Below are positions 633-26,105 of a stretch of DNA of 64,000 bases, one piece after another. The notes beneath the pieces were generated by a model. That model saw only the letters and a program-made list of their open reading frames with translations. It was not told the DNA's origin and ran no database searches. The DNA comes from Acutalibacteraceae bacterium (GTDB lineage Bacteria > Bacillota > Clostridia > Oscillospirales > Acutalibacteraceae), in assembly GCA_045589535.1 (NCBI GenBank), contig JAZNPE010000048.1, forward strand, positions 17,237 through 81,236, written 5' to 3'. Within the stretch, counting starts at the first letter, position 1. Each line of letters starts with the position of its first letter. The translations under genes and the position numbers were made by a program.

Positions 633-638
633 AATTTA

Positions 639-1829: not shown

Positions 1830-1841
1830 CTTTAATTCAAA

Positions 1842-3026: not shown

Positions 3027-3050
3027 GGTTTATCCCTTTCGTAATAACGC

Positions 3051-4250: not shown

Positions 4251-4252
4251 AC

Positions 4253-5293: not shown

Positions 5294-5308
5294 ATTATTT
5301 CTCCTATT

Positions 5309-6589: not shown

Positions 6590-6674
6590 TGTATTCTCCT
6601 TACTTTTTTACTGACAGTATCAATACCCAATACTTAACCTTATTGCTTAATACGAAAACATCTATATAGCTTAA

Positions 6675-8201
6675 TTATTTATGCTTTTTGTATTTAATTA
6701 TCCCAAAAAGTTTTTCAGCCTCAGATTTCAAATACATACGATTTGTCGAGAAACATAAAAGAATACTGAAATAAACAACACCACAAATAGCAACTTCAAC
6801 AAACTGCCATATTAATCCTGACGGGATATATCTTTGCATTATATAAGCAAATACACCCATCACAACGGATGACAGAATAATCTCTTTTACTGAGATAAAC
6901 ATTTTAAGAGGTGAAATCCTAAAACTAAATTTCATAAAAAACATATGTACAACAACTATCTGCAAAAAAGCAAATGAACGTAACCAAACAAGAGTACTAA
7001 ACCCTTGTCTTACAGAGTATACGCATACAGGGATCACAAAAGCAAGATGTAAAAGCTGGGCTACTAATGAAATTTTCGGTTTTCCTTTAGCTCGATACAC
7101 CTCTCTGCTGAATGTTCCGAAAACACAAACAATCGACGTACACAGACCCCAGATTCCGACAAAATCAGCAGCTTCCATCCATTGTTTACCCAACAACAAC
7201 AATGTTACAAGATCGCGAAAACAAAATATTCCAACTCCTAACGGAAGAACAAACATCGCAACATTCTTCTGAAAAGTAAAAAAAAGCTGTTCAAATTTTT
7301 CACTATCATCCTGGCAGCGGGATAAAGCTGAAAATAAAACAGTAGTAGTAGCACCTGTAACAATAGTTAAAATACTTGTAACTGTGCTCTGTGAATTCTT
7401 ATACAGTCCTGTGTAGTAATTTCCGAGAACATTACTGATAACCAGAATATCAATATAATTGCTTGCCCACAATGCAATCGACTCCAGTAAAGTCCATATA
7501 CTGAAAGAGAGCATTTTCTTAAGAAGTTTAACACTGTAAAAGAAATTTGGTTTCCAGTCTGAAGCATATGTCAGTAAAATTGATTTTAGTAATCCGCCTG
7601 TTAAATTGCCTATGATAAGTGACCAGTGCTTTAATCCCAGTAATGCAAGTGGTACAGTAACAATAAGTGGAAGCAACGAAACAGACAATCTTTTAACAAA
7701 AAGAATCTTGAAATTCAGTTTTCTCTGAAACAATGCTTCCTGTATGCTACTGAAGGATGTCAGCGGTAGCGACAAAGCTGCAATTGCTAACGCAAAACCA
7801 TATCCCTGATTTCCCAATGCAACAGAAATCTGGTTTCTGAACACTGCTATAAGTCCCCATGCCAATAAAGAAATACTTATATTAGTCCAAAAAGCAACAG
7901 AAGCACCTTTATGTAATTCTTCTTTAGCACTATATTGGTGCTGAATAAGATACTTTTGGAATCCCGCTGTCGACAACATATCAGCAAAACTGATAATCAT
8001 ATTAATTGATGCAATTATACCGAAAATCTCTGGGGCAAGAATTCGTGCAAGAATCATATTCGAAATTGGAACAATTAATTTGGCTGACAATTCTGCCGCG
8101 AAAGACCATATAGTGGCTTTTCCTACCGAATCACCTGAATTTTTATTCATTTTGATTGAATCTGTCACATAATACGCTCCTTTCGCTACACAAGTCTTCA
8201 A
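6675..8201 (-). CDS. wzx: Wzx-type polysaccharide flippase (MOP superfamily)
   Basis: About 490-508 aa and polytopic, with a multi-TM profile typical of polysaccharide biosynthesis (Wzx) proteins. The true start is probably the internal MNKNSGDS. Confidence 0.7.
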   Translation of the reverse strand: MKTCVAKGAYYVTDSIKMNKNSGDSVGKATIWSFAAELSAKLIVPISNMILARILAPEIFGIIASINMIISFADMLSTAGFQKYLIQHQYSAKEELHKGASVAFWTNISISLLAWGLIAVFRNQISVALGNQGYGFALAIAALSLPLTSFSSIQEALFQRKLNFKILFVKRLSVSLLPLIVTVPLALLGLKHWSLIIGNLTGGLLKSILLTYASDWKPNFFYSVKLLKKMLSFSIWTLLESIALWASNYIDILVISNVLGNYYTGLYKNSQSTVTSILTIVTGATTTVLFSALSRCQDDSEKFEQLFFTFQKNVAMFVLPLGVGIFCFRDLVTLLLLGKQWMEAADFVGIWGLCTSIVCVFGTFSREVYRAKGKPKISLVAQLLHLAFVIPVCVYSVRQGFSTLVWLRSFAFLQIVVVHMFFMKFSFRISPLKMFISVKEIILSSVVMGVFAYIMQRYIPSGLIWQFVEVAICGVVYFSILLCFSTNRMYLKSEAEKLFGIIKYKKHK

Positions 8202-8233
8202 AAAAATATCGCAGATTTACACAAATTCTTATA

Positions 8234-9520
8234 TTACCTAATCAAAGACTTATTAAGCATATAGTGTTTCCAGTCAGCAATCACAATACCCCAAAAAGTC
8301 GCCGTTATGGTAATGTGTGTAAATGTAATAAAATAATTAGTGAACAATGATAACACGATTGAAATAATAAGTGATGCTCCTGCAGCCTTTGCACCAGGAT
8401 AGCCAGTTTTGATCATCTTTCTACAAGCAATGAACATTTTAGCATACAGGTTAATAATTAATATAAGCGCAAAAACACCATAATTATACATTATTTCAAG
8501 AAAATCATTATGTGCACCCGACTCACTTCCATAAACCAACTGAATACCACTTAATCCGTGTCCGAAAAAGAAACCGTAAAAATCAGATACCGTAATCGCT
8601 TTCCAAACACCTGAGTATATATCATCACGACCGCTACCACCATCTGTAGTAATCGTTTCCATTCTATCAAACAGTGACAAATTAAGTTTTGACTCAAGTA
8701 AAAAATATGCTATAAACAAAAATACGGCCACTACAAATAATTTAATCAAAACCTTAAAAAAATCTTCTATGTTTTTCTTTTGAATAGAACCAATTATGTA
8801 ATACACAAATACAGCGCATACCATTGCTATAAAGCCTGCACGCTTTCCTGCCATCATAAGACACACAACGAGAGGTATTAGTTTGATATACATATTTGTT
8901 TTCTTATCAAACAGAAAAACCAATGGTAAAGCACACAAAAGAAAATAAGCATCCGACTGATAAACATTCGTATGATTCAAAGCCACGCGAGAATACATTA
9001 GAAACAAAGTAAAGGCAGCTAACGCAAAATATAAAACACTATATACCTTGTATTCAAATTTTGAGATGCCTTTTGAGGCTGCATAATAAAAAACAAAGAT
9101 TACGGATGCAAAATAAAACAACATTGCATACGAAAAAACGATGTTAATAGAAAAGTTTTTTAGGTTCAACAGTGAAATGACCGCAACATAAAAGCTATAC
9201 ATAAAAGCGTCTTTGATTACAATCGGCAACGTTATGCTTTTTTTTATACAACTCATTAAAAGTAGTACCGACAATGCAATAAAACTGATGTTTAATACAT
9301 TCCATATACCTCCCGAAGAACCACTAGCACCTACCAAGGAGTTCCTGTACATTTTCAATATTGCATACAAAAATGAAATAAAGAGCCATATAGCTAGCAC
9401 CCAGTTACGCGTGACTGAATTATTCTTTTTTATTTCACCTTCAACCGCAAGAGAGCATAAGTTAGACCTTTCAGTTGAACCATGACCAGAACATATTCTT
9501 TCATTGCTATCGTTTTTCAT
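8234..9520 (-). CDS. O-antigen ligase/Wzy-like polysaccharide polymerase
   Basis: 428 aa with more than 10 predicted TM helices and a large loop containing GAHNDFLEIMYNYG (Wzy_C-like). Adjacent to wzx. Confidence 0.6.
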   Translation of the reverse strand: MKNDSNERICSGHGSTERSNLCSLAVEGEIKKNNSVTRNWVLAIWLFISFLYAILKMYRNSLVGASGSSGGIWNVLNISFIALSVLLLMSCIKKSITLPIVIKDAFMYSFYVAVISLLNLKNFSINIVFSYAMLFYFASVIFVFYYAASKGISKFEYKVYSVLYFALAAFTLFLMYSRVALNHTNVYQSDAYFLLCALPLVFLFDKKTNMYIKLIPLVVCLMMAGKRAGFIAMVCAVFVYYIIGSIQKKNIEDFFKVLIKLFVVAVFLFIAYFLLESKLNLSLFDRMETITTDGGSGRDDIYSGVWKAITVSDFYGFFFGHGLSGIQLVYGSESGAHNDFLEIMYNYGVFALILIINLYAKMFIACRKMIKTGYPGAKAAGASLIISIVLSLFTNYFITFTHITITATFWGIVIADWKHYMLNKSLIR

Positions 9521-11429: not shown

Positions 11430-12298
11430 TAAACATTCCCCAAATACTCGGTATAATTTTTCTCTGTGTCAAAAACATACGCGTGAACAGCAGCTTTGCG
11501 CTGCTCTTCACTCGGTAATTTCATATAATCACCGTAACGGTATGTAAGATACTCTTTTATTCTCTCAGAACCGAGAAGGTTGGTATCTTCAAAATTGATA
11601 TCGACGGGCTTCTCAAAAAAAGATTTATCAAACAAACCGTTTCTGAATTTTGCGGGGGTTATCCAATAGCAATACTTATAATTATCTTTTCTGCCGTCGT
11701 ATCTGTAAATATGGCTATATGCAATTCGTGCCATAAGCTTACAGGGCATAAATTTCAGGGAGTCGAGAACGACTTTCTGTGACTTACTTTTCGGCTTCCA
11801 GTTTCTTTGGGACAATCCGTAAAGCGTTACAAACTTGGATTCATAGTAAACCATTTTCTGAATAAATTTATTCTCCGGAACCTTATGAAGAATCATTATA
11901 TCAACATATATACCGTGGTGCATATCCATGCAGTTTTTGAAGTTCTCTTCAATAAACGTAGTGCCATTCATACGCACCTTTGCATATTCAAGATACTTAT
12001 TATCAGTTCGCCATTCCTGAAGGACAAACTGTTCGTTCTTGGTGTTTTCAAAAACTGTTTTGAATTTTTTGTATTGGTCGGGAGTCATAAATATATCCAG
12101 ATCATCGTCCCAGGGAATAAATCCTCCGTGGCGGACCGCACCGAGTGCCGTGCCACCCATTATATAATAAACAATCCCGTGTTCGCGGCACAGTTTGTCT
12201 ATAAACTTCATAGTTTCAAGAATTTTATCCTGTACGCTACGCACGGACCGCTGACTCATAAATCCACTTCTTTTCTTTTTACTAAGCTTTCTTTGCAA
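11429..12298 (-). CDS. LicD-family phosphotransferase (phospho-alcohol transfer to glycan)
   Basis: Contains the LicD hallmark YYIMGGTALGAVRHGGFIPWDDDLDIFM. Confidence 0.8.
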   Translation of the reverse strand: MQRKLSKKKRSGFMSQRSVRSVQDKILETMKFIDKLCREHGIVYYIMGGTALGAVRHGGFIPWDDDLDIFMTPDQYKKFKTVFENTKNEQFVLQEWRTDNKYLEYAKVRMNGTTFIEENFKNCMDMHHGIYVDIMILHKVPENKFIQKMVYYESKFVTLYGLSQRNWKPKSKSQKVVLDSLKFMPCKLMARIAYSHIYRYDGRKDNYKYCYWITPAKFRNGLFDKSFFEKPVDINFEDTNLLGSERIKEYLTYRYGDYMKLPSEEQRKAAVHAYVFDTEKNYTEYLGNV

Positions 12299-13112
12299 GA
12301 TAATAATACTTGCTCATTATTTTATTAAAAATCGGTATTCTTATCAAAATCTTTGCGACAAATTTCAACACTTTAAATATCGATGTTTTCACTGTATAAA
12401 CAACAACAGACTCCGTCCAACGGTGCGGATGGATACTGATTATGTTACCCTTAGTCTTATCTAATGCCTCTGATAAATAGTCAAGATTTTTATAAGGTAC
12501 ATTTTTATCATCGGTATTGACAACATCGTTATTTATCGGGTCATAAATGAGTTTAAACATTCGACCCGCATCTGAAAAATACAGATAATCTGTCGGTATT
12601 TTCTCTTTGAAATTTACCATTATATCCGCGATTTCAGGATATAATTCACGAACTTTTTCATTCCTGAAAAAATCACGGTTCGAGTGATAGCCGTTTCTCT
12701 CAACTATAGGATTGCCATGTTGGCAAACCGTTTTAATTTCAAATCCGTTGTCCTCAAACATCTTTTTGTTCTTTGCAAACTCTTCGATAGCTTTTTCAAA
12801 ATCACCTTTGCAAGCATCAAGAACGTCATAATGATATGAAATTTCGTGTCCCATATCCTGCATCTCAGACAACATTTTGATATTGCGTTCTTCTTCCAAC
12901 AAATACGCCTGCACATAATACGAACCTCTGTGTCCGTACTGATTTTCAATCTGTGCAATTCTGTACGCATGTGAAACATCAGTTTCAACATCGTGCTTCA
13001 GAACAAGATAATTGCCCGAATCGGATTTAACTTCGCAAGCAGGAATACTTTTGAAATTCTTTTCTTTTAACACAGAACAAAACTCTGCCCATTTTTTATA
13101 TACAAAAATCAT
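12282..13112 (-). CDS. hypothetical EPS-locus protein, possibly polysaccharide deacetylase-fold
   Basis: 276 aa. Only weak motif similarity (LKHDVETDV, H-rich segments). No firm assignment. Confidence 0.3.
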   Translation of the reverse strand: MIFVYKKWAEFCSVLKEKNFKSIPACEVKSDSGNYLVLKHDVETDVSHAYRIAQIENQYGHRGSYYVQAYLLEEERNIKMLSEMQDMGHEISYHYDVLDACKGDFEKAIEEFAKNKKMFEDNGFEIKTVCQHGNPIVERNGYHSNRDFFRNEKVRELYPEIADIMVNFKEKIPTDYLYFSDAGRMFKLIYDPINNDVVNTDDKNVPYKNLDYLSEALDKTKGNIISIHPHRWTESVVVYTVKTSIFKVLKFVAKILIRIPIFNKIMSKYYYLAKKA

Positions 13113-15072: not shown

Positions 15073-16319
15073 CTTCTAACAATTTCAATAATTGCATTCT
15101 GCTCATCTGCCGTCATCTTTATATCACTGGGCAAACACAAGCCACGCTCAAAAATATCCATACTCACATCGAAAACTCCGCCCTCGATATAAGCGTCTGT
15201 TTTCGCTCTTAACGAACCGCTTCTTGTCACAAACTCATGCATACGGTACATCGGTTGCATATGCATCGGCTTCCAGAGAGGTCTGCCCTCTGCATTATAG
15301 CTTGCAAGTTTTTCAAGAATTTCCGTCGGGCAGGTTTTGCCTTTTTCCCTGACATAAAGTGCCTTGGAATCGTCTCTCACCTGACGGCACATATAATCCT
15401 TATCAATAATCATAGCTGAGAGCCAATAGTTAGGCTCTGTTTCGTCTGCTATAGGATTCATCTTCACCGGAAGATACTTGAATCCTTCACAATAACGTTC
15501 ATAAAGAGCTTTTTTACGTTCGATATGCTCTTCAAGATACTTGTACTGACCGCGGATAACACCTGCGACAACATTGCTCATGCGGTAGTTATAGCCAACC
15601 TCTTCGTGCTGATACCACGGGGCATTTTCCCTCGCCTGAGTTGACCATTTGCTTGCCTTATTTGCAACTTCCTGATCATCAGTAAGAAGACATCCGCCTG
15701 CTGAACCCGTGATAATTTTATTTCCGTTATAGCTTATTGCGGAATAGTCACCGAAAGAACCGCACTGTCTGCCGACTACTGTTGCGCCCATAGCCTCGGC
15801 AGCATCTTCAATAAGAAGTGCACCGTGCTTTTCACAGATCTCTTTAATTTTATCAATTCTTCCCGGGAAACCGTAAAGCTCAGCATAAACAACAAGCTTT
15901 ACATCAGGATAGAGTTCAAAGGCTTTTTCAAGAGCAACGGGATCCATATTCCATGAATCTTCCTCGGTATCAATAAAGACAGGAATACCGCCTTCATAAA
16001 CAACCGGATTGAGTGTTGCAGCAAAAGTCATATCGGAACAGAAAACACGCTTGTTTTCGAGTGCGCCGTGGCTGATTGCCGGTCTGCCGTAAAGCCTTTC
16101 ACCAGCAGCTTTCACCGTAAGGTGGAGCGCTGCCGTACACGACGAAAGCCCAACCGCATATTTCTTTTCAGCCTTCTCGGCGGCTATTCTCTCAACCTCA
16201 TTGATGTTTGCACCAACTGTAGACATCCAGTTTGTTTCATAAGCCTCTTTCATATATTCAAGCTCTTCTCCGTGCATTGTAGGAGTTGCAAGCCATATTT
16301 TTTTACTGAATCTTTCCAA
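15060..16319 (-). CDS. DegT/DnrJ/EryC1/StrS-family sugar aminotransferase
   Basis: 419 aa. PLP sugar aminotransferase pattern (PTMHGEELEYM, NGNKIITGSAGGCL). TTG start preceded by AGAGGG. Confidence 0.8.
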   Translation of the reverse strand: MERFSKKIWLATPTMHGEELEYMKEAYETNWMSTVGANINEVERIAAEKAEKKYAVGLSSCTAALHLTVKAAGERLYGRPAISHGALENKRVFCSDMTFAATLNPVVYEGGIPVFIDTEEDSWNMDPVALEKAFELYPDVKLVVYAELYGFPGRIDKIKEICEKHGALLIEDAAEAMGATVVGRQCGSFGDYSAISYNGNKIITGSAGGCLLTDDQEVANKASKWSTQARENAPWYQHEEVGYNYRMSNVVAGVIRGQYKYLEEHIERKKALYERYCEGFKYLPVKMNPIADETEPNYWLSAMIIDKDYMCRQVRDDSKALYVREKGKTCPTEILEKLASYNAEGRPLWKPMHMQPMYRMHEFVTRSGSLRAKTDAYIEGGVFDVSMDIFERGLCLPSDIKMTADEQNAIIEIVRSCFD

Positions 16320-16373
16320 AATAATCTGCCCTCTTTTTGTAAAGTTTCTTAAAAATAACAGTATATTTTAAAG

Positions 16374-17531
16374 CTATTTCAAATTTAATTTATCGAACAA
16401 TTTATGGTCGTAATCACTTTTCAATGCTAATTCAAGCCTGTTGGCATAGGTTTCCTTGAAGCCCTTCTTTTTACCGAACATCAGTGAAAAAATCCTGTAA
16501 AACTCATAAAACAGAGTAAGAATCGGATATTTTTCAAGTATCGGATAATCACGTTTTAAATATCTGTACGGAACGAAAACTCTTGAAATTATATATCTGA
16601 TCTTGCCGCCGGCGCGTTGATTGGCAGACTCATCTCTTGTTTTTGCAGAACCGAAAGTTCCGCCTTCAAGAATAAACTTTTCCATCTGTAATGTTATTTC
16701 GTCGTGCTCTTCATCGCTGAACCACACACGGCTGAGTTTTCTTGCGCTTTCAGCAAATGTTAAAAGTTTGCCATTTTTAAGAGTTTTATGTATTTCAGCG
16801 GTATATCCGCACTTGTTATCTATAAGTAACAGATCAATGAACGGTCGCAATCCGCATCCGCCGAGTCTGAAATGCTTTGCCATATGAAGAATATGGTAGT
16901 AATAAAAAATCTCATCGCTGAGTTTGTATCTGAAACCTGAGTCTTCACATGTCTTTGCCGTTTTCCAGATATCTTTAATCACCTTGGAATAAAGCGGTGA
17001 TTTTTTACTGCCAAGTAATTTATAATGAAGTTCAACAACCGTTTTATTATCTGAAAGAAAAACAATATCGTGTTTGCTTTCGCCTTTTTTTGAATAACCT
17101 TTGATACTAAGAATTGCATCAGTTGCCTTTTTCAGATCTTTTTCTTTAACAAGAATATCAACATCACAGCTCGTTCTCATCCATGGCTGAGGATACAGAC
17201 TGCGTATTTCTGCACCTTTCAGCGGAATGAACGGAATTCCCGTTTTTTCTAACACAGAACAAACTTCATCAAAGGATTTGCTCATTTTTTCCTGTTCAAA
17301 AACTGCCTTGTAAAATTCGTTCATAAACTGACCTTTCTGAGGACAGTTCATAAAATAACCGTTATTATTTAATGCTGAAGCCGCAAGATGTGCAACGTTA
17401 TGTTTATAAGACAACACAAGCAGCTCAACCAAATCTTTTTCGCTTAACGAAGCTGCATCGCACAAATCAAGTTTCTGTTGAAAAACTTCGTGTTTTATAA
17501 GATTCAATAAAATTCTGTCGATTTGCTCCAT
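16374..17531 (-). CDS. uncharacterised nucleotidyltransferase (PF14907/NTP_transf_5-like)
   Basis: 385 aa. The motif IPLKGAEIRSLYPQPWMRTSCDVDILV is characteristic of this family. Last gene of the peptide-modification module. Confidence 0.65.
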   Translation of the reverse strand: MEQIDRILLNLIKHEVFQQKLDLCDAASLSEKDLVELLVLSYKHNVAHLAASALNNNGYFMNCPQKGQFMNEFYKAVFEQEKMSKSFDEVCSVLEKTGIPFIPLKGAEIRSLYPQPWMRTSCDVDILVKEKDLKKATDAILSIKGYSKKGESKHDIVFLSDNKTVVELHYKLLGSKKSPLYSKVIKDIWKTAKTCEDSGFRYKLSDEIFYYYHILHMAKHFRLGGCGLRPFIDLLLIDNKCGYTAEIHKTLKNGKLLTFAESARKLSRVWFSDEEHDEITLQMEKFILEGGTFGSAKTRDESANQRAGGKIRYIISRVFVPYRYLKRDYPILEKYPILTLFYEFYRIFSLMFGKKKGFKETYANRLELALKSDYDHKLFDKLNLK

Positions 17532-17544
17532 AGTGTTGCTCCGA

Positions 17545-18009
17545 TTATTTTTTGTTTTTAATTCGTCTTATATTAAACCACAGACGCATAAAAAGCGGAC
17601 GAATCGGGGTAAGAAGTTCCCATATAAATGCAAAAATTTTCCAATAAACTGACTCTGAGCTTTTCCGTTTTCCCTTCCGTTCAATTTCACTCACACAGGC
17701 AACCACCTGCGACTTTTCAACTTTTTCACATTTCGTTTGTGCGTCACCGCAAAGAAGCATTGAACCATCAGGGCAGATTTTTTTAACTCTGTGAAGTACC
17801 AGTAAACCGTCTTTTCTTTTAAAAAGGAGAATACTGCCCTTGCTCAAATCTTTCTCCGCATACTTTTTGAGATAAACAATATCACGTCTGCTGATAAGAA
17901 AAGGATTCATACTGCTACCCGAAACACAGAGAGGTACAGTTGCACCTTCGGCAATTAAATTTTCAATCGAATCTGAAATCTCATATAGCGAGCAGTTATA
18001 CTTTTCCAT
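17545..18009 (-). CDS. S24/S26-family serine peptidase (signal-peptidase-like)
   Basis: 154 aa. Contains a GSSMNPFL Ser motif, an LHRVKK Lys motif and a C-terminal hydrophobic/amphipathic tail. Confidence 0.65.
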   Translation of the reverse strand: MEKYNCSLYEISDSIENLIAEGATVPLCVSGSSMNPFLISRRDIVYLKKYAEKDLSKGSILLFKRKDGLLVLHRVKKICPDGSMLLCGDAQTKCEKVEKSQVVACVSEIERKGKRKSSESVYWKIFAFIWELLTPIRPLFMRLWFNIRRIKNKK

Positions 18010-18012
18010 AAT

Positions 18013-18774
18013 TCACCCAAAAATCTCATTATATGTCAATCTTACTGCCTCTTCATCGGGTCTGCATTCAAGAATAAAAACTGGTGTTCTTTTTAAAAGA
18101 CAATCAAAAGTATCAAGAGTCTTATTAAGGCAATCTTTATCCCAATGAGGTAAAAAGATATGCGGCATAAGATATTCCGTTGCAGTTTCAACAAGCTTTG
18201 TTATGCGGTTTTCAGCAGACTGCCTCAATACAACTATCGCACTCAGGGGTGCTTTTCTGTTAAGACAATACTCTGATGAGCCTTTCCAAGGAAGACCGAA
18301 AGCAAAAAATGTTTCGTCAATTTCTCTTACAAAAGCTTTATCACCGTTTACGATTTCAGCACCAAGGAACTCCCCCCAGAGTTCAGCCTGAGTGGTTTTT
18401 CCGACACCTGAGTAGCCTGTAAAAAGAATCCCCTTTCCGTTAAGTGTTACAAACGAAGAATGTGTAAGTAAAGTGTTGAAAGAAGAAAATCTTGAACATA
18501 TTGCCGCAAGCGGTAAAGCAAAATCTCTGTCATAATCCGGATGGTAATATGAAACGGCCTCGCTCCAATTATTATTGGCAAGAAGTATATCACCGTTCCT
18601 GCCTCTTAATAAATGCTCCGGTTTTTCCAAAAGATACTGTACAGAATGACATTCCTGCATCTTATCTTCAAATTTAATTTTTATTACCGAATCTTTTTCG
18701 CCGGTTAAAAAATCTTCTGCGAAACCACAATTCTCTTTCTGCCAGTCAACCGACAGATCTGCAATCCGTATCAT
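18013..18774 (-). CDS. HPr-kinase-like P-loop protein (HprK C-terminal domain homolog)
   Basis: P-loop GILFTGYSGVGKTTQAELW. I moved the start to the ATG at 18774 because it forms an ATGA overlap with the stop of the 94-aa gene. The track start is 18798. Confidence 0.65.
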   Translation of the reverse strand: MIRIADLSVDWQKENCGFAEDFLTGEKDSVIKIKFEDKMQECHSVQYLLEKPEHLLRGRNGDILLANNNWSEAVSYYHPDYDRDFALPLAAICSRFSSFNTLLTHSSFVTLNGKGILFTGYSGVGKTTQAELWGEFLGAEIVNGDKAFVREIDETFFAFGLPWKGSSEYCLNRKAPLSAIVVLRQSAENRITKLVETATEYLMPHIFLPHWDKDCLNKTLDTFDCLLKRTPVFILECRPDEEAVRLTYNEIFG

Positions 18775-19055
18775 GTGTTCTGTGAACCGTTGAAGCAAAA
18801 GAAATAAGCTTCATATGCTCCATGTTTTTTAACCTGTTCCATAAGGTCGTTGTAATAATGAATAAAGTCTGTTCCCGGCAAATCTTTTGATACTGCAAGC
18901 TTTCCGGTGTATGTTTCACGGCAACCGTCCAGTTCGAATTTAAACTGAATAACAGCCATACCGCCAACTACATCATCGCCGACCGAAGCAGCGATACTTT
19001 CATTAAGATTAAGCGCAATAAGCTTACTTTCGGGAGCTACGTATTCTTTCTTCAT
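18771..19055 (-). CDS. 94-aa protein, candidate substrate or precursor of the adjacent radical SAM enzyme
   Basis: ATGA overlaps with the genes on both sides. Leader-like N-terminus MKKEYVAPESKLIALNLNESIAAS, a VVGG motif, and 2 Cys. Confidence 0.55.
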   Translation of the reverse strand: MKKEYVAPESKLIALNLNESIAASVGDDVVGGMAVIQFKFELDGCRETYTGKLAVSKDLPGTDFIHYYNDLMEQVKKHGAYEAYFFCFNGSQNT

Positions 19056-20110
19056 AATTCTTTCTCCTTCTTTTTTATATCATATAGTTGCTTAAGCTGT
19101 TTTGCTATATCACAAAAGGTTTCTGCCGGTTTCTCGGGATGTCCGCTTTCCGCACACAATACAGCCGGACAACGCTGACAGAATTCTTTCCATTCGCAAT
19201 CCGAACACTCTTTCGGATTTTTAATTTTTTCAAGCTGAGTATATAAATTTTTAAAATCTTTACTTATATCCCCTGAATATTCCGCACACGGTTCATTAAG
19301 AAACGAACATAGCTGAAGCTTTCCGTGCCAGGTAATATAAAGAGATTTACGATAACTTGCACACATTGAGAACGGGAATTCCGGGAAACGGTACTTACTT
19401 TTTTCAAGATCATCTAAAGTATATTCATAAGAGAAATCCGCAATACCTAACCTTGAGGTTTCTGCTGTGTTTGTTGCACCTCTTGACGATTTTAAAACAG
19501 AAACAGTGTGTTGAAGATGTACCCTTTTTTCTCTTGCAAACTGATAAATCTGCTGAAGGTCACCTGCATTTTCTTTTACTATTGTTGAAGAAAGAGTAAG
19601 CGGCACGCCAGCTTCTTTGATAAGGTCAATTGCCTTTGAGATATGGTCAAATCCGTCCGATACCCCGCATAGTCTGCGATAAGTTTCGTTGCTTGCACCG
19701 TATACTGTCAACTGCATATTGTGCGGCATACCGTAAAGTCGGAACTTTTCCATAGCTGTTTCATCTATAAAATATCCGTTAGAAAAAATCGTAATCCAGA
19801 AACCCATCTTATTAAGACGGCTGTAGATCTCCCAAAACTGAGGATGAGTGAAAACCTCACCGCCTGTAAGCAGAATTTTAAGGGTGCCCATTTCACGAAG
19901 CCTTTCGGCAATTTCAATCCACTCTTCTGCAGCAAGCATTGTTCCCTGCAAAGCTGCCTGTTCTTTGTCCAGACGGACATAGCACATAACACAATTAAAA
20001 TTACAGAAAGGTGTAAGTTCAAATGTTACAGAAAAAGGCGCACAATGTTCAACTGCCCATAAGTTGAGCTTGGCTAAAAAACCGTCGCCGAAACTTTCAC
20101 ATCCAAGCAT
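19052..20110 (-). CDS. radical SAM enzyme with C-terminal SPASM-type auxiliary cluster domain
   Basis: Contains CNFNCVMC (CX3CX2C). The C-terminus has C-x12-G-x4-C (CASYRKSLYITWHGKLQLC) and CSDCEWKEFCQRC (C-x2-C-x5-C-x2-C). Confidence 0.8.
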   Translation of the reverse strand: MLGCESFGDGFLAKLNLWAVEHCAPFSVTFELTPFCNFNCVMCYVRLDKEQAALQGTMLAAEEWIEIAERLREMGTLKILLTGGEVFTHPQFWEIYSRLNKMGFWITIFSNGYFIDETAMEKFRLYGMPHNMQLTVYGASNETYRRLCGVSDGFDHISKAIDLIKEAGVPLTLSSTIVKENAGDLQQIYQFAREKRVHLQHTVSVLKSSRGATNTAETSRLGIADFSYEYTLDDLEKSKYRFPEFPFSMCASYRKSLYITWHGKLQLCSFLNEPCAEYSGDISKDFKNLYTQLEKIKNPKECSDCEWKEFCQRCPAVLCAESGHPEKPAETFCDIAKQLKQLYDIKKKEKEL

Positions 20111-20379
20111 TATTCCAACGCTCCCTGTTCTTTTAACGAATTAATGAATTTTTCAACATCTTCAGCTGCAACAATTTTTTCGACCTCGTAGTTTTCGACA
20201 ATAATTTCAGTCAGTTCTTCAAGCGTAGCACCCTTCTCAAGTACCTTCCATAAAAGCTCTCCGCTTTCGCTTAAAGCAATCATTCCGTGCATCTTTGAAG
20301 TTTGTTCACCAACCGGAACGGCCATTACATATTCACCAATTTTACGGACAATAAAGCCATCCTTAACACGATATACCAT
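20110..20379 (-). CDS. PqqD-family protein (RiPP recognition element-like chaperone)
   Basis: 89 aa from the ATG at 20379, preceded by GGGGGAAAG (the track start at 20391 is a TTG). PqqD-like sequence LSESGELLWKVLEKGATLEELTEIIVENYEV. TAATG overlap with the rSAM gene. Confidence 0.7.
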   Translation of the reverse strand: MVYRVKDGFIVRKIGEYVMAVPVGEQTSKMHGMIALSESGELLWKVLEKGATLEELTEIIVENYEVEKIVAAEDVEKFINSLKEQGALE

Positions 20380-20423
20380 ACTTTCCCCCAAAAAACACTA
20401 CACCTATCTTATTTTACTAATAG

Positions 20424-20452
20424 ATTATAGCATTTTAACGTCATCAAATCAA
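20424..20452 (-). promoter_or_regulatory. sigma-A type promoter of the PqqD/rSAM module
   Basis: On the minus strand: TTGATT, 17 nt spacer, TGcTATAAT (extended -10). Lies about 45 nt upstream of the PqqD start. Confidence 0.55.
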
Positions 20453-20492
20453 TATTTTATTGTAAAAAATAATCGTAAAATTGAACAAATTG

Positions 20493-20530
20493 ACAAAAAT
20501 AAAGTGCATCATTTTCATATGACGCACTTT
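20493..20530 (-). terminator. rho-independent terminator after the ABC exporter
   Basis: Minus strand AAAGTGCGTCAT-atgaaa-ATGATGCACTTT followed by ATTTTTGT, immediately after the stop at 20535. Confidence 0.6.
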
Positions 20531-20534
20531 ATAA

Positions 20535-22265
20535 TTATTTATCTGTCTGTGAAAGACTTCCCTCTTCATCAACCCTGTAAACACGGTCACAATACTGTAG
20601 CATACTCGGTCTGTGAGTTGTTATGACACAGGTCCTGTTCGGATAAGATTTCATAATATTGGCAAGAACTTTTTTCTCTGTTTCAGCATCAAGTGCACTC
20701 GTTGCCTCATCCATAACAAGAACAGGTGAATTTTTAAGAATTGCCCTCGCAATTGAGATTCTCTGAATCTGACCTTCGGAAAAATTGACACCCTTTTCGT
20801 TTATAACCGTATAAATACCCAACGGAAGTTTTTCAATAAAGCTCCACGCTTCAGCTGTTTTCAGAACATCAACCAATTCGTCATCCGTAGCATCAGGATT
20901 AACCATACGCAGGTTATCTGCAATACTTCCCGCAAACACGGCATTCTCCTGCGGAACATAAGAGCAGAATCTGCGTGTACTTGCAGAAATATCGGTTTTT
21001 CTTCCATCCGCTACAGACATCGTCATTCTGCCCTTCTGTGGCTTGACAAGTCCTAAAATCAACCTGAGAATTGTTGTTTTTCCCTCACCCGAAGGGCCCA
21101 CAAGAGCGATGGTTTCACCCGGATTTACATAGAATGAAATGTCTTTTACGACAGGAGTTTTTCCGTCTTTATAGGAGTATGTAAGATTATCACAATTAAG
21201 ATATACACCCTTGTCGTAAGCTAACTGTTCAAGCTCTTCAACTTCAGCAGCATTAGCGGTATCCTCAACATCAAGCTCGGTGATTTCCATAACCCTTCCC
21301 GCAGCTGTTGCAATTGAAATTGAAGTCGGCAGAAGAGAAACAATAGAAGAAAAAGAGGAAGTCAACTGTCCCGAAATCTGAAGAAAGAGTGTCATTGTAC
21401 CGTAAGTTATCGCACCCTGCCAAAGACGCCATACACCCCAACCGTAACAAAGGTAAGAAACTGCAAGTCCGATGACAGAAAGACACATCGTCATAATAAT
21501 CGAAAACTTACCGTGGTCAAGACGCATTTTTCTGTAAATAAAAAGGTAATCCTTGAGCTGATTCACATAACGTTTAGTCACTCCGAAAGCCTTGATTGTC
21601 TGAATATTCTGGATTGATTCAGAATAAAACGAAAGGATTTTTCCGTTCATTTCTCTGCTTTCTTTGTTGTATTTACGCATCATCTTTGCTGAAATCCTTG
21701 AGGTTAAGGCAAGGAAAGGCGCACTCATAAAAGCAAACAAAGCCATTACCGGATCGTAGTATAAAACGACAGCAAGACAACCTACGAACTGTGTCACTCG
21801 GGTAAATACACTCGGAATAAATGAAATAATACTGCTTGAAATGGCTGAAACGTCACCTTCGATTCTGTTAAGAAGGTCACCTGAATGATATTTACTTATG
21901 TCTTCCCAATCGGCATACACAACGTGCTCATACACATTACTGCGGATTTCATTACTTATTTTCGAACCAACCACAGTTGCAACTCTTGATGTCGCAGAAG
22001 AAACCAAAATTTGCAGAAGACCGAGACCTACAGCAAAAACCGCACTTGAAACTATAGTCTTTTCATTGTGTGTAACAACAGAGTCGATAAGATATTTTGA
22101 AGCAACCGTTGAACCGATTCCCATCAACGTACCTATAATTCCGATGACAATATACAAAAAAATCTGAAAGCGATAACCTGAAGCATGCCGAATAAGCCAC
22201 TTCCATTCTTTAATTAAAGAACGGTACAACGTGGCATATTCACCCGGCTTTTTCATAATTATCAC
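20535..22265 (-). CDS. ABC exporter, fused permease/ATPase (MsbA/McjD-like architecture)
   Basis: 576 aa. Six-TM N-terminal half, Walker A GPSGEGKTT, signature FSEGQIQR, Walker B LVMDEATS. No C39 peptidase domain. Confidence 0.8.
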   Translation of the reverse strand: MIIMKKPGEYATLYRSLIKEWKWLIRHASGYRFQIFLYIVIGIIGTLMGIGSTVASKYLIDSVVTHNEKTIVSSAVFAVGLGLLQILVSSATSRVATVVGSKISNEIRSNVYEHVVYADWEDISKYHSGDLLNRIEGDVSAISSSIISFIPSVFTRVTQFVGCLAVVLYYDPVMALFAFMSAPFLALTSRISAKMMRKYNKESREMNGKILSFYSESIQNIQTIKAFGVTKRYVNQLKDYLFIYRKMRLDHGKFSIIMTMCLSVIGLAVSYLCYGWGVWRLWQGAITYGTMTLFLQISGQLTSSFSSIVSLLPTSISIATAAGRVMEITELDVEDTANAAEVEELEQLAYDKGVYLNCDNLTYSYKDGKTPVVKDISFYVNPGETIALVGPSGEGKTTILRLILGLVKPQKGRMTMSVADGRKTDISASTRRFCSYVPQENAVFAGSIADNLRMVNPDATDDELVDVLKTAEAWSFIEKLPLGIYTVINEKGVNFSEGQIQRISIARAILKNSPVLVMDEATSALDAETEKKVLANIMKSYPNRTCVITTHRPSMLQYCDRVYRVDEEGSLSQTDK

Positions 22266-22280
22266 CTCAATTCTTGTGTT

Positions 22281-23756
22281 TTAGTTTTTAGTTTTTGCTT
22301 TTTTCTTATCTGAATAACCGTATTTTGAAGAATAACCGTAGCGGTAAGAATATCTGTTGTAGTATCCGCCGTATCGGTAATATCCGCCGTATCCGCCAAT
22401 TCCTCCGGCAGCACCGTTAAGAACACAACCAAGGAACTCCGCGTCAGTTTCAAGCATTGAGTTGATACCCGCGCGGATAGTCTTCTGAATGACCGCATCT
22501 TCCCTGATTACATAAATAATTGAGTCTACCATCTGTGCAACAATCGTTGCATCCGAAATAATTCCGCACGGAGGGGTATCAACCAACACTAAATCATAGT
22601 CCGCTTTAAGACTCTCCAATTTTTTCTTAATCTCATCCGTACGAAGTATTTTCTGAACACTTTCAGCCTTTGGCTTAAATGTAAGCAAATAAAAGCCGAG
22701 AGAATCAATAAAATCTATCCGGTAATACTTATTATCCTCCACTTTTGTTCTAACAGTTTTGTCTTCACCCAACAGTGTTTGAATTCCGGAATCCCGCAAA
22801 TCCGCATCTACCATCAAAACCTTCTTTTCATTTTTCGCGAAAATTGATGCAAGATTAACCGAGAAAACTGTTTTACCTTCAGACGGAGCAGTACTGGTAA
22901 CCATAATTGTATTTTTATTTTCATCTATCAGGCTTTGAACAGCACCTCGAATCAACCTCAGAGACTCCATAAACTCGTTTCCGACAAGCGGATTGGACAG
23001 AATTATTCTTCGGTCAATCTCTCTTCTGTATTTTTTAAACACAACCTGCGGCAAAACGCCAAGACAGTGTTGATTGAGAACAGTTCGGATATCCTCTTTC
23101 GTTCGGATAGTTTTTCTGAGCAAAGCATACATCACTATCCATAAAACACCGAGAACAAAACCCACAAGAGCTGCCTTTGCAACTGAAGACACCCATACTC
23201 CGGAATTCGAAGGTTTTTCAGCAACTTCCGGTTCACTGATCATTACCAGTTTTGTTCTTCCAATAATATAGTCTGCAACAAAAGAGTAATTATCAATAAC
23301 AGACATCAGTGTATCATATGTCAATTGAGCATCTGTTCCTGTAGATGTGAGTGTAACCATATTGGTTCCCTGAACACAAGTTGCATTGACCGTCGCAGGC
23401 ATACTTTCTACTCCAAGATCGTTACAGACCTTGCTCTGAAGAATTTTATTACTTACTATATGCGGAAAAACCGTTTCCAACTGGTCAGCAGTTTCTCTGT
23501 CATAGTAATATGAATATGCCGCGATACCATTATCACCGGTAAGCACCTGATTCTCTGTGTGAACAGTAAAAGTTGCTGTTGTTTTGTACATAGGAACAAA
23601 ATGAACATAGCTTCTGTAAAACTGTATACCCGACAAAAGAACAGCAAGAGCAAGTGCTACCCAACCGAATTTTTTAATTCCGCGTAACACATCGCTTATC
23701 AGAACACCTATTTCTATGGTCATTTCTTCTTTTTCGTTTTCAATCGTATAGTTCAT
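22281..23756 (-). CDS. fused Wzz chain-length regulator / BY-type tyrosine autokinase, with Tyr-rich tail
   Basis: 491 aa. Two-TM Wzz-like N-terminal half, Walker A TSTAPSEGKT, LVLVDTPP, and C-terminal tail GGYGGYYRYGGYYNRYSYRYGYSSKYGYS. Confidence 0.8.
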   Translation of the reverse strand: MNYTIENEKEEMTIEIGVLISDVLRGIKKFGWVALALAVLLSGIQFYRSYVHFVPMYKTTATFTVHTENQVLTGDNGIAAYSYYYDRETADQLETVFPHIVSNKILQSKVCNDLGVESMPATVNATCVQGTNMVTLTSTGTDAQLTYDTLMSVIDNYSFVADYIIGRTKLVMISEPEVAEKPSNSGVWVSSVAKAALVGFVLGVLWIVMYALLRKTIRTKEDIRTVLNQHCLGVLPQVVFKKYRREIDRRIILSNPLVGNEFMESLRLIRGAVQSLIDENKNTIMVTSTAPSEGKTVFSVNLASIFAKNEKKVLMVDADLRDSGIQTLLGEDKTVRTKVEDNKYYRIDFIDSLGFYLLTFKPKAESVQKILRTDEIKKKLESLKADYDLVLVDTPPCGIISDATIVAQMVDSIIYVIREDAVIQKTIRAGINSMLETDAEFLGCVLNGAAGGIGGYGGYYRYGGYYNRYSYRYGYSSKYGYSDKKKAKTKN

Positions 23757-23766
23757 AATACCAATC

Positions 23767-25281
23767 CTATTCGTTTCGGTTTAAGTTATCCAATGAATTT
23801 TCTGAAAAACCGCCATTATCCTGCGGAACTTCATCGGACACGGATTTACCTGTTTTGGAATAAGCATAATAGTTGCTCTGTCCGTGATAACCGCGTTCGT
23901 CAGCACCCAACTGTCCAAACAAAGTAAACGGTTTATATACGTTGTTAAGTACACAACCTTCGATATTTCCTCCCGCTTCTGTAATATTAAGAATAACTTC
24001 ATTGATATCCTCAACAGGAACACAGTCCGTACGAACAACAAGAACCGACGCATCAGCTACTTCCGCAATCGTTATCGCGTCAGCCGAAACAGAAATCGGC
24101 GGCGTATCAATTATAATAAAATCAGCCTTTTGTTCTATTTGAGTCAAAGCATTTTTAACCACAAGGTTATTGGAAAGAAGATCCGAACTTTCATGTGTTT
24201 TTTTATTGAATGCTATAGTAAGATTGCTCTTTCTGTATCTGTAAAATTTAAAATTTGCAAGTTCAACATCCTTGGATAATACATCTGAAAAATCCGTTTC
24301 AACTTCTTCGTGGAAATCAAAAATCTTGTGAATAGACGGTTTTCTGACATCAAGATCAAGAAGAACAACATTGTATCCTCTGTCCGACAATGCCAAAGAA
24401 ATATTTGCCGCAACCGTTGATTTGCCTTCATTTTCAGCTACACTTGAAATAACAAAAGATTTTTTATTCTGATTCTTATGTAAATATTCAAATTTTGTAC
24501 AGAGCTTTTGATAATCTTCAGTAAAGCGCAGACTTGAATATGCATCATTAATAAGCAACGCTCGTTTCTTTCTCTTGAACCTTTCTTTCTTTGAAAGATG
24601 CGGTCGTTCATGTGACACTGTTCCGATCAGCTTAGAATCGACTTTATCAGAAAAGCCCTTTTCCTCCTTCACTGTTCCTCGTAATAAAGAGAACAGCACT
24701 ACTAATCCGCCTTCAAATAACATCGCCAAAACTATAATCTGTTTTCTGTAAACTGTAAGGCGTGAATTAGACGGCGTCGTAGCCATTGTAGGCTCTGAAA
24801 CAACATCAATAATTGAATCTGTAAACACAGCTTCTGTTACTTCCGGATAAACCTCAAGTATAGATGTAAGCAATTTGAACGCCAGTTCAGGTTCTTCCGC
24901 CCTTACAGCAACATTCAAGAGATTTGTGGATTCGGTCAGACTTGTAGAAATTGTTCCGTCGAATGACTCTAATCCGAGATTTTCTGCGGCCAACTTTTTA
25001 AGTGAATTCTGTTTAAAAACATCTTTGAAAATATTTGCCATTTCTACCGAAGCTGTAAGGCTGCTGAACGCGCCTGTTGTTCCTACTCTTGAACGGACAA
25101 CCAAAACAGCCTTGCTGGTGTAAGTGGGTGTATAAATACTTTTTTCAACAATCTGAATCCCCATCAGAGCTATAAGAGCAATAAGAATGATTGCCCAGAA
25201 GCTGCGAACAATATCCTTTATCAAGCTGTTCCATTCAAAATTAAAACTAATTCCTGAACTGTTCCTTTTCACTCTTATCAC
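23767..25281 (-). CDS. second fused Wzz / BY-kinase-like protein
   Basis: 504 aa. Wzz-like N-terminal half, Walker A SSVAENEGKST, FIIIDTPP, and a shorter Tyr cluster YHGQSNYYAYSK. Confidence 0.75.
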   Translation of the reverse strand: MIRVKRNSSGISFNFEWNSLIKDIVRSFWAIILIALIALMGIQIVEKSIYTPTYTSKAVLVVRSRVGTTGAFSSLTASVEMANIFKDVFKQNSLKKLAAENLGLESFDGTISTSLTESTNLLNVAVRAEEPELAFKLLTSILEVYPEVTEAVFTDSIIDVVSEPTMATTPSNSRLTVYRKQIIVLAMLFEGGLVVLFSLLRGTVKEEKGFSDKVDSKLIGTVSHERPHLSKKERFKRKKRALLINDAYSSLRFTEDYQKLCTKFEYLHKNQNKKSFVISSVAENEGKSTVAANISLALSDRGYNVVLLDLDVRKPSIHKIFDFHEEVETDFSDVLSKDVELANFKFYRYRKSNLTIAFNKKTHESSDLLSNNLVVKNALTQIEQKADFIIIDTPPISVSADAITIAEVADASVLVVRTDCVPVEDINEVILNITEAGGNIEGCVLNNVYKPFTLFGQLGADERGYHGQSNYYAYSKTGKSVSDEVPQDNGGFSENSLDNLNRNE

Positions 25282-26105
25282 TCCTCTACTACAACCGTCA
25301 TAATTGAATGGCCTTCATAGCCGTCTTTGGTTGAAATATAATAATGAACATTATATGTTCCGGCTTCTTCTGAATCAAAGTTTGTAGAAATCAGCAATTG
25401 GATATCTTCCGGTTTCATCAGCACGCCGTTTACTGTAACATCACCAAGATAATCTTCGAACTTAGGTGTTTCGCCCTTCTTTATGTAAATAAGGCTCTTC
25501 TTCAGCTGAATCTGCGGAGCCATTGTTTCATTACCCTCAACATGTACCGTTACATCCAGGTAAATCGTATCACCTTTGCTGTTTGAAACCTGTAAGGAAA
25601 CAGTAAAAACACCCGCAGTATTTCTTATGTAGTCCGTTGTAACAATAGCGACTCTGTCGCTTATATCACCATCTATGCAGTCACGTGCACCGACAGCCCC
25701 TCTGATATCAAGTGCCTCGTCAACGCTGTAAACCAAAGCACGTTTCATATAAAACTCCGGTTTTGTATAGTCAGTATACTTAAGCGTTCTTGTCTTTTTT
25801 ACAACATGCTTGTCCGAGTCAGCAACAGCATAAGTAACCGTACACACACCCGGCTCAATGAACTTGGAAACCGATTCAATACAAACCCAATCTGTAATGT
25901 CACCGTCTTTTTCATCATAGGCAGCAACACCCTGCAAAAGCATTTCTTCTTTATCTTTTACGCTGAGTTCAATAACTTCGCTATCAATGGTAATTTCCGG
26001 AATAGTTGTATCTGTTGTTATTTTTTCAACAACAGAAAAAATAATGAACGCAATTAACATCAATACAAAAAGAGCAAGCGTAAGTCTTCTGAGCAATCTG
26101 ACCAT
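25278..26105 (-). CDS. membrane-anchored protein with repeated Ig-like (DUF5011-like) domains
   Basis: N-terminal TM helix. The pattern A.D..DGDI(T/S)..V recurs about three times. Confidence 0.45.
   Translation of the reverse strand: MVRLLRRLTLALFVLMLIAFIIFSVVEKITTDTTIPEITIDSEVIELSVKDKEEMLLQGVAAYDEKDGDITDWVCIESVSKFIEPGVCTVTYAVADSDKHVVKKTRTLKYTDYTKPEFYMKRALVYSVDEALDIRGAVGARDCIDGDISDRVAIVTTDYIRNTAGVFTVSLQVSNSKGDTIYLDVTVHVEGNETMAPQIQLKKSLIYIKKGETPKFEDYLGDVTVNGVLMKPEDIQLLISTNFDSEEAGTYNVHYYISTKDGYEGHSIMTVVVEE

Follow-up and report, generated by a model that had tools for sequence, protein, structure and literature searches.

A candidate leader-dependent substrate of a radical SAM-bearing cassette in a capsule locus of Acutalibacteraceae

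What is made by a gene of 94 codons that is locked by overlapping stop and start codons between a radical S-adenosylmethionine (radical SAM) gene and an HPr-kinase-like gene? The locus lies on contig JAZNPE010000048.1 of an Acutalibacteraceae bacterium (assembly GCA_045589535.1), and the window analysed here is the whole stretch of 64,000 nucleotides at positions 17,237 to 81,236 of its forward strand; all window coordinates count from the first letter of that stretch. An earlier note, made from the sequence alone, had proposed that the 94-residue protein is a genuinely translated substrate with a leader, in the manner of peptides made on the ribosome and modified after translation (RiPPs). 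We consider it likely that the product is a leader-dependent substrate of the cassette in which it lies, and that this cassette is a radical-SAM-bearing relative of the pathway for linear polyphosphorylated peptides (LPP). The reading as a substrate is favoured because of the leader/core pattern of the family, the gene context, the homology of the neighbouring enzymes to those of the LPP pathway, the YxxP motif and the type of the radical SAM enzyme. The specific sites that we propose below by analogy, a cut at residues 20-22, phospho-Ser24 and a modification at Cys87, are held with less confidence than the reading as a whole. The genes of the cassette are as follows.

20535..22265, minus strand: MsbA-like ATP-binding cassette (ABC) exporter, 576 aa, no C39 domain (ABC_membrane at residues 35-304, ABC_tran at 373-523)
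20110..20379, minus strand: discrete PqqD-type RiPP recognition element (RRE), 89 aa from ATG (PF05402, E 1.5e-13)
19052..20110, minus strand: radical SAM/SPASM enzyme, 352 aa, translationally coupled to the precursor (PF04055, E 1.3e-24)
18771..19055, minus strand: 94-aa precursor gene, stop included (open reading frame and translation, ATGA overlaps, ribosome-binding site, homologues, dN/dS)
18013..18774, minus strand: HPr-kinase-like (ScmC/LppK-like) P-loop protein, 253 aa, coupled to the precursor (weak Hpr_kinase_C, HprK_rel_B and ScmC matches)
17545..18009, minus strand: SipW/archaeal-type signal-peptidase-like protein, 154 aa, predicted leader peptidase (TIGR02228, Peptidase_S24)
16374..17531, minus strand: NTP_transf_5 nucleotidyltransferase-fold protein, 385 aa, LppN/PsmN homologue (PF14907, E 4.4e-36)

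The 94-residue open reading frame is a real, conserved gene and not a chance one, because it is coupled by ATGA on both sides, has a ribosome-binding site and homologues, and shows a median pairwise ratio of nonsynonymous to synonymous substitution rates (dN/dS) of 0.156 over 31 distinct genes. Translation of the minus strand from 19055 to 18771 gave the 94 residues quoted in the earlier note, and both overlaps that it had described were confirmed in the raw sequence: the precursor's ATG, at 19055-19053, shares sequence with the radical SAM stop TGA (19054-19052), and the precursor stop TGA at 18773-18771 overlaps the ATG at 18774-18772 from which the HPrK-like protein begins (MIRIADL...). A Shine-Dalgarno sequence, AAGGAG, stands at 19069-19064, 8 nt 5' of the start codon. 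A word-indexed search found homologues in 24 clusters (93-97 aa, 56-99% identity), an exhaustive profile search added 26 small homologues of 84-104 aa, and a profile search of a 5.8-billion-protein set returned 92 homologue clusters; the family counts about 100 homologues of 84-105 aa. Three further candidates (P0031, P0043 and P0052) were rejected as large repeat or low-complexity proteins matched over many short stretches. A scan of GTDB genomes, one per species, with an alignment of close relatives as query, gave 25 further loci. The protein had no match in Pfam, in NCBIfam, in a profile search of PDB sequences or in a fold search of the PDB with Foldseek, so the housekeeping fold that the earlier note had named as a possible refutation was not found, and no known fold or family otherwise accounts for it.

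Does the family look like a peptide substrate? Three parts can be told apart in the window.

18984..19055, minus strand: leader, residues 1-24, MKKEYVAPESKLIALNLNESIAAS, predicted to bind the PqqD-type RRE (conservation, dN/dS 0.063, YxxP motif)
18960..18983, minus strand: variable Gly/Ser/Asp-rich linker, residues 25-32, VGDDVVGG, which holds the Gly-Gly of the earlier note
18774..18959, minus strand: core, residues 33-94, predicted small alpha/beta domain (C45-R46, invariant C87)

Residue counts refer to an alignment of 91 sequences and counts for the C-terminal tail to 107 members. Selection on residues 1-24 (dN/dS 0.063) is tighter than on residues 33-94 (0.235). Y5, P8, E19 and A22 are identical in 91/91 sequences, L12 and I21 are each shared by 90, S10 by 89, N16 by 87 and S24 by 82. 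A conserved leader followed by a faster-evolving core is a leader/core pattern, as the earlier note had expected, and the invariant Tyr, Pro and Glu of the leader are RRE-motif features. The place where the leader ends had to be moved, since it had been set at about residue 32, after a Gly-Gly. The conserved block stops at S24, in E19-x-I21-A22-x-S24, and this segment is, by analogy with LPP precursors, the more likely candidate for the junction of cleavage and phospho-Ser; in 8 of the 91 members (for instance those of loci L031 and L032) position 24 is Gly and a Ser follows at 25. The Gly-Gly falls in the variable linker, whose span from A22 to F38 ranges over 13-34 residues across the family and is made of 36% Gly, 14% Ser and 11% Asp. 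It is present in the window, and at site 31-32 in 34 of the 91 members; position 31 is more often Ser (37) than Gly (30), and position 32 is Gly in 77.

In the core, C87 is the sole invariant residue (91/91), followed by C45 (85) and by R46, Y49 and Y67 (84 each). Along the chain come I36, F38, C45-R46 and Y49; F64 and Y67 follow in a segment rich in aromatics, and the Cys is last, 2-9 residues from the C-terminus in 106/107 members. The S-Q-N-T end, in which the earlier note had seen acceptors for the kinase, is present in the window. It is confined to the closest subfamily; the tail is missing in about half of the members, only 9/107 end in Ser or Thr, and LppK, the closest characterised kinase, targets a Ser of the core, Ser3 (PMC13381572), so that role was not upheld. 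In the most distant members (P0108-P0113) leader, linker and terminal Cys are retained; the core is otherwise unrelated, and in some C45 is missing.

An AlphaFold2 (AF2) run with 25 close sequences was uninformative (mean predicted local distance difference test, pLDDT, of 43.9) and the 91-sequence alignment was used instead; with it the mean pLDDT was 74. No structure is predicted for leader and junction, where residues 19-25 stay under a pLDDT of 50, and ten-residue blocks over residues 31-90 reach means of 72-91, with predicted strands at 29-31, 35-40 and 46-49 and helices at 64-78 and 81-88. A Sec signal was considered owing to the signal-peptidase-like gene and rejected: a reading of residues 1-24 found no Sec-type signal peptide, the longest hydrophobic run being L-I-A-L, and E4, E9, K11, N16, N18 and E19 break the hydrophobicity.

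To what pathway, then, could such a precursor belong? The LPP family was described from the lppA-K-B-S-D-N cluster of Paenibacillus alginolyticus (Popov et al., Nat Commun 2026; PMC13381572), and its clusters often lie inside capsule loci of Bacilli. The set comprises LppS, a SipW-like leader peptidase; LppB, a discrete RRE; LppK, an HprK-like kinase; LppN, an NTP_transf_5 protein; and LppD, an MsbA-like exporter, and its core was defined by the same models that match here, namely PqqD, NTP_transf_5, TIGR02228, TIGR02203 and TIGR04249 (PMC13381572). LPP precursors have 35-200 aa, which makes the 94 residues of our protein no anomaly, large as the earlier note had thought them for a RiPP precursor, and they share a conserved N-terminus, YxxPxVLxHQxIxFETxxS, ahead of variable C-termini (PMC13381572). 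In experiments the YxxP leader was bound by LppB and handed to LppS, which cut after Thr-1, 16 residues past the Tyr of YxxP; LppK polyphosphorylated core Ser3, beside the cut, and LppN was inactive in the heterologous host (PMC13381572). The authors speculate on a link to capsule or biofilm and report a patchy, conflict-like distribution (PMC13381572).

Pairwise comparison with the LPP enzyme sequences from the supplements of PMC13381572 gave 28% identity of the window's SipW-like peptidase to LppS (E 4e-10), 25% of its PqqD to LppB (E 8e-7), 32% over 108 aa of its HPrK-like protein to LppK (E 1e-10) and 26% over 176 aa of its NTP_transf_5 protein to LppN (E 1e-5). On sequence, five cassette proteins are homologous to LppB, LppK, LppS, LppN and LppD-type proteins. 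The SipW-like protein has TIGR02228 as its best match (E 1.1e-5; Peptidase_S24, E 1.4e-3), and across 28 sequences G31, S33, M34, P36, F37, H72, R73, G88 and D89 are invariant, of which S33, H72 and D89 correspond to S29, H68 and D93 of LppS. In the HPrK-like protein the P-loop GxSGxGKT and the next Asp are conserved, and its homologues in other loci match Pfam PF27840 (ScmC); a mechanical list of open reading frames puts its start at TTG 18798, and in related loci the start lies at or no more than 4 nt from the precursor stop. For the PqqD gene that list gives a TTG start at 20391, and the best NCBIfam match of the protein is the lasso PqqD chaperone, below cutoff. The best NCBIfam matches of the ABC exporter are MsbA-related; its transmembrane domain begins at residue 35, and Pfam found no C39 peptidase domain in it. 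The radical SAM enzyme, which has roughly 838 homologue clusters, carries CxxxCxxC at residues 36-43, and towards its C-terminus conserved cysteines are arranged in a SPASM-like manner; it has sub-threshold NCBIfam matches to PqqE, ScmE and sactipeptide maturases and PDB matches to SkfB and PqqE, and as far as sequence tells, its nearest relatives are the peptide-modifying enzymes PqqE, SkfB, AlbA and ScmE. For the precursor itself BLAST found no match to LppA, and hhalign aligned residues 1-10 (KKxYxxP) with LPP leaders over 10 columns as a weak match (probability 32%).

The window's peptidase and RRE are closer to a Desulfosporosinus pair in network cluster 4 of the LPP material (35% and 40% identity; RRE E 1e-23) than to LppS and LppB (28% and 25%), and because of this the radical-SAM variant may reach beyond Acutalibacteraceae. 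Clusters 4 and 9 of Supplementary Data 1 of PMC13381572 hold peptidase-like and RRE pairs, left unanalysed, from Desulfosporosinus, Dehalobacter, Ruminococcus and Firmicutes CAG:56. A side observation concerns the cysteines: several LPP cores of Bacilli (e.g. MKKAYIAPTVLKHQQIVFETKPSKPHPCDNGGHTGSPNCK) hold a Cys pair, one of the two near the C-terminus, which resembles C45/C87; no radical SAM enzyme is reported for those clusters.

Is the context conserved beyond this contig? We compared 41 related loci, 25 of them from the one-genome-per-species GTDB contigs and the others metagenomic, whose hosts are Acutalibacteraceae or unclassified Clostridia metagenome-assembled genomes, mostly from the ruminant gut. 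The order PqqD, radical SAM, precursor, HPrK-like is held in all 41 wherever the sequence reaches, with precursors down to about 30% identity, and the radical SAM gene is present in 41/41. The expectation that homologues would always neighbour radical SAM and PqqD genes held throughout, and no homologue without such neighbours was met among the loci examined. In L010 and L040 the ABC gene does not adjoin the other cassette genes.

In the window a capsule locus of the Wzx/Wzy-dependent type surrounds the cassette. Its upstream side has the genes for CpsB, a membrane Ig-like protein and two tyrosine autokinases fused to Wzz, and the downstream side those for DegT, a priming transferase, glycosyltransferases, Wzy and Wzx.

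22281-23756 and 23767-25281, minus strand: two Wzz-fused tyrosine autokinase genes (TIGR01007, 2e-28 and 1e-30)
25278-26105, minus strand: membrane Ig-like gene, the usual upstream partner

The Ig-like gene and the two tyrosine-kinase genes are directly upstream in every locus with enough sequence, L010 excepted. In L029, L030 and L038-L041 the flanks have no glycosyltransferase genes, yet the Ig-like gene, the kinase pair and the cassette stand together; because of this persistence, the stable partner of the cassette is the chain-length/kinase pair and not any sugar pathway. A universal tie to the pair is contradicted by L010, where pyruvate formate-lyase genes lie upstream. There the region 1-8700 encodes a dockerin/Listeria-Bacteroides-repeat protein, a flavodoxin-like protein and pyruvate formate-lyase with its activase, with no preceding Ig-like, kinase or ABC genes, a layout that may be a rearrangement or a mis-assembly of that metagenome-assembled genome. 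We also considered the ABC transporter as the capsule flippase and rejected this: the locus has its own Wzx and Wzy, the presence of Wzx making the transporter unnecessary in that role, and the transporter stays where sugar genes are absent.

What could the cassette do with its precursor? We propose the following course. The PqqD-type protein would bind the invariant N-terminal segment K-K-x-Y5-x-x-P8 ... E19-x-I-A22-x-S24 and present the precursor to the radical SAM/SPASM enzyme, which would modify the core, most plausibly at Cys87 and perhaps at Cys45 where present; a thioether-type cross-link is possible. The HPrK-like protein would phosphorylate the junction Ser; going by Ser3 of LppA, Ser24 is the candidate. 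In loci that have it, the SipW-like peptidase would cut the leader off around residues 20-22, the NTP_transf_5 protein, where present, could decorate the phosphate, and the MsbA-like ABC transporter would export a product of about 70 residues. Two registers of the cut are possible. Carrying over the spacing of LppA, with Tyr at -16, would place it after residue 20 and make E19 the Glu of F-E-T, from which Tyr is equally distant in both; aligning the start of the LppA core, A-Q-S, with A22-x-S24 would place it after I21. Ser24, one residue farther than Ser3, would be the best phospho-acceptor candidate in either register.

Several observations weigh against this reading. The leader does not align with LPP leaders beyond its first 10 residues and the F-E-T cleavage motif is missing, with no equivalent of its Phe or Thr, and for this reason the cleavage site and the phospho-Ser are placed by analogy only. 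The HPrK-like protein fits kinase models just around the P-loop, far below curated cutoffs. The SipW-like gene is lacking in L041 and in 7 loci (L029-L033, L038, L039) that are complete in other respects, and the NTP_transf_5 gene in about 6 loci, so the steps of peptidase and NTP_transf_5 protein are not universal. The predicted fold of the core is odd for a peptide substrate and would suit a small protein partner. The loci all belong to a single clade, made up of Acutalibacteraceae and related Clostridia metagenome-assembled genomes, and shared descent partly explains the gene order. Finally, we infer all the chemistry of the cassette; no modification, cleavage or binding has been observed for the family.

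The fold of the core lends itself to an explanation that we judge improbable, namely that the 94-residue protein is not a substrate and serves as a small folded accessory, such as a scaffold, adaptor or regulator, with the radical SAM enzyme acting elsewhere, for instance on a capsule sugar. AF2 gives a compact alpha/beta core with fair confidence, purifying selection runs along the whole length, the core is long at about 70 residues, and the cassette sits in capsule loci almost always adjoined by two tyrosine-kinase genes, all of which speak for such an accessory. What speaks against it is the discrete PqqD protein, which has no known role besides peptide presentation, and the fact that the most conserved part is the unstructured N-terminal 24 residues with their RRE-binding YxxP; moreover, distant members exchange the whole core and keep leader and terminal Cys, and loci that have no genes of a sugar pathway close by still carry those for PqqD, radical SAM enzyme, precursor and kinase-like protein.

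Could the cassette instead be an ordinary cluster for a secreted antimicrobial, a sactipeptide- or ranthipeptide-like bacteriocin, sitting in the capsule locus by chance? The layout is the classic one, with radical SAM/SPASM enzyme, recognition element, Cys precursor and ABC exporter, the core evolves about 4x faster than the leader, and related LPP systems are distributed in a patchy, conflict-like manner (PMC13381572). However, no immunity gene is evident and each locus has a single precursor copy; over precursor identities from 99% down to about 30% the cassette holds its place, with the tyrosine-kinase genes on one side and the priming transferase on the other, and the Ig-like and two kinase genes stay linked where the sugar genes are gone. 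A core dN/dS of 0.235 means purifying, not diversifying, selection, and we regard a chance neighbour of this kind as quite unlikely.

That the protein is a double-glycine-type precursor, with a 32-residue leader cut after Gly31-Gly32 on export and a kinase acting on S-Q-N-T, finds some footing in V-V-G-G-M at residues 29-33 and the S-Q-N-T end in the window, in the fairly conserved G32 and in the lasso-type HPrK-like kinases that phosphorylate a C-terminal Ser (PMC6993621), but is very improbable given how few members have the Gly-Gly, the Ser that is commoner at position 31, the variable linker length, a 576-aa exporter with no C39, the cassette's own SipW-like peptidase homologous to LppS, a tail past C87 of 2-9 residues of unrelated sequence, and the core Ser targeted by LppK.

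We therefore return to the leader-dependent substrate and ask where it would act. The product probably acts at the cell envelope with the Ig-like protein and the chain-length/tyrosine-kinase pair. A more specific picture, which we put forward tentatively and would not expect to hold in full, is that of a radical-SAM cross-linked domain of about 70 residues with a (glyco)phosphorylated Ser near its new N-terminus, which after export would engage directly with the Ig-like and kinase proteins and be dedicated to capsule assembly as its regulator, cofactor or anchor. A component of the capsule machinery would be expected to be kept with the kinase pair even where the sugar genes are elsewhere. If this holds, the peptide would be part of the capsule machinery in gut Clostridia, not a toxin or signal. 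Whatever the fate of this picture, the window extends the LPP toolkit, known since 2026 and in Bacilli only, to abundant, uncultured Clostridia of the ruminant gut, where it is joined to a radical SAM/SPASM step and a long Cys-bearing core and tied more tightly to chain-length/tyrosine-kinase genes than to sugar genes. Two testable handles follow: a probable new radical SAM modification at a defined, invariant cysteine, and a natural comparison among loci that have or lack glycosyltransferases, peptidase or NTP transferase, from which the role of capsule-associated peptides could emerge.

Some further features were seen in the window and in the related loci.

20532-20499, minus strand: terminator-like hairpin 3' of the ABC gene (14 bp and a T-run; pattern match)
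20452-20424, minus strand: promoter-like site ahead of the PqqD gene (TTGATT, 17 nt, TG-TATAAT, an extended -10; consensus scan)

Because of the hairpin and the promoter-like site in 20424-20532, the genes from PqqD to NTP_transf_5 may also be transcribed apart from the kinase and ABC genes. The two tandem Wzz/tyrosine autokinase fusions (22281-25281) each have a Tyr-rich C-terminus, share about 23% identity and are both found in nearly all related loci; in Firmicutes the chain-length and tyrosine autokinase proteins, CpsC and CpsD, usually have a gene each. Inside the capsule locus an open reading frame of 276 aa (12282-13112, minus strand) lies between the genes for the cytidylyltransferase and LicD, and Pfam gave no match for it at E <= 0.001. 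The contig of L038 holds a second, different set at 16290-20258, some 7 kb from the main module on its downstream side: ScmC-like, PqqD and ABC exporter genes come after a LysM/G5/M23 peptidase gene, and no radical SAM gene was called among them. This set may be a plain LPP-like cassette. In loci that have no signal-peptidase-like gene, a phosphodiesterase-type gene (GDPD or PI-PLC-X) adjoins or lies near the module; such genes could bear on phosphodiester-linked decorations, or be a coincidence.

L029:1133-2155, strand opposite to the module: phosphodiesterase-type gene
L030:637-1659, strand opposite to the module: phosphodiesterase-type gene
L031:12312-13199, strand opposite to the module: phosphodiesterase-type gene
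L032:12316-13197, strand opposite to the module: phosphodiesterase-type gene
L038:15231-16085, strand opposite to the module: phosphodiesterase-type gene

How, finally, does the cassette compare with known systems? With lasso peptides of the paeninodin/pseudomycoidin type it has in common a Y/WxxP leader, a discrete PqqD-type RRE and an ABC exporter, and both the HPrK-like kinase, which polyphosphorylates the precursor there, and the NTP_transf_5-type PsmN have counterparts in the cassette (PMC6993621). In pseudomycoidin the kinase phosphorylates the C-terminal Ser, and PsmN, which is NTP-transferase-like, is required for adding one or two hexoses to the phosphate (PMC6993621). Unlike a lasso precursor, the one in the window has a core that is not lasso-like, and the C-terminal Ser that the lasso kinase targets is not conserved; neither the seven cassette proteins nor the called genes of the related loci matched the Asn-synthetase-like cyclase or the transglutaminase-like B2 protease of lasso systems.

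Among radical SAM systems, the discrete RRE is shared with PqqD/PqqE and MftB/MftC and the Cys-bearing substrate with the sactipeptide/ranthipeptide maturases AlbA, SkfB and CteB. For the radical SAM domain, E-values of 1e-14 to 1e-21 were obtained with PqqE, the mycofactocin maturase, SkfB and AlbA, but every score lies far below the curated cutoff (for PqqE, 74 bits against 381), and for that reason we place the enzyme in none of these families. A thioether maturase of the sactipeptide/ranthipeptide kind would be compatible with the enzyme type and the invariant Cys. No system of the PqqE, MftC or sactipeptide type is known to combine its maturase with a kinase, a protease of the signal-peptidase-like kind and an NTP transferase. 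The scores for SynChlorMet were likewise low, with ScmC (TIGR04249) at 12.8 bits against a cutoff of 125 and ScmE (TIGR04250) at 70.3 against 400. A literature search found no paper that combines radical SAM, RiPP and HprK, and nothing on SynChlorMet, on HPr kinase and PqqD with exopolysaccharide, on a radical SAM RiPP and PqqD with capsular polysaccharide, or on PqqD, HPr kinase, nucleotidyltransferase and radical SAM together.

A precedent for a long modified core is QhpC, the gamma subunit of quinohemoprotein amine dehydrogenase, a protein of about 80-110 aa with a leader, whose cysteines are cross-linked by the radical SAM/SPASM enzyme QhpD before a dedicated serine protease cuts the leader off; the product folds into a small domain and is an enzyme subunit in Proteobacteria. 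The Qhp system is not known to have a kinase, an NTP transferase or a link to capsule loci.

The LPP pathway offers the fullest comparison. Both systems have a precursor starting M-K-K-x-Y-x-x-P, with a conserved N-terminus, a variable C-terminus and a length within the same 35-200 aa range, and both lie in capsular polysaccharide loci with a chain-length/tyrosine-kinase gene adjoining. They differ in that the window's leader has no V-L-x-H-Q-x-I-x-F-E-T part, and in that its core of about 70 aa has a predicted fold and an invariant C-terminal Cys, whereas LPP cores are Gly/Asn/Pro-rich and of low complexity. The hosts are Clostridia (Acutalibacteraceae) here and Bacilli there, and peptidase and NTP transferase are dispensable in some of the related loci. 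Above all, a radical SAM/SPASM gene stands between RRE and precursor in every locus; the main text of PMC13381572 and those of its supplements that were examined make no mention of radical SAM, SPASM or Clostridia. Since LPPs are defined as linear products with no other core-modifying enzyme, and a coupled radical SAM/SPASM gene is found in 41/41 loci, the cassette is not a plain LPP member but a radical-SAM-bearing, Clostridial and previously undescribed variant.

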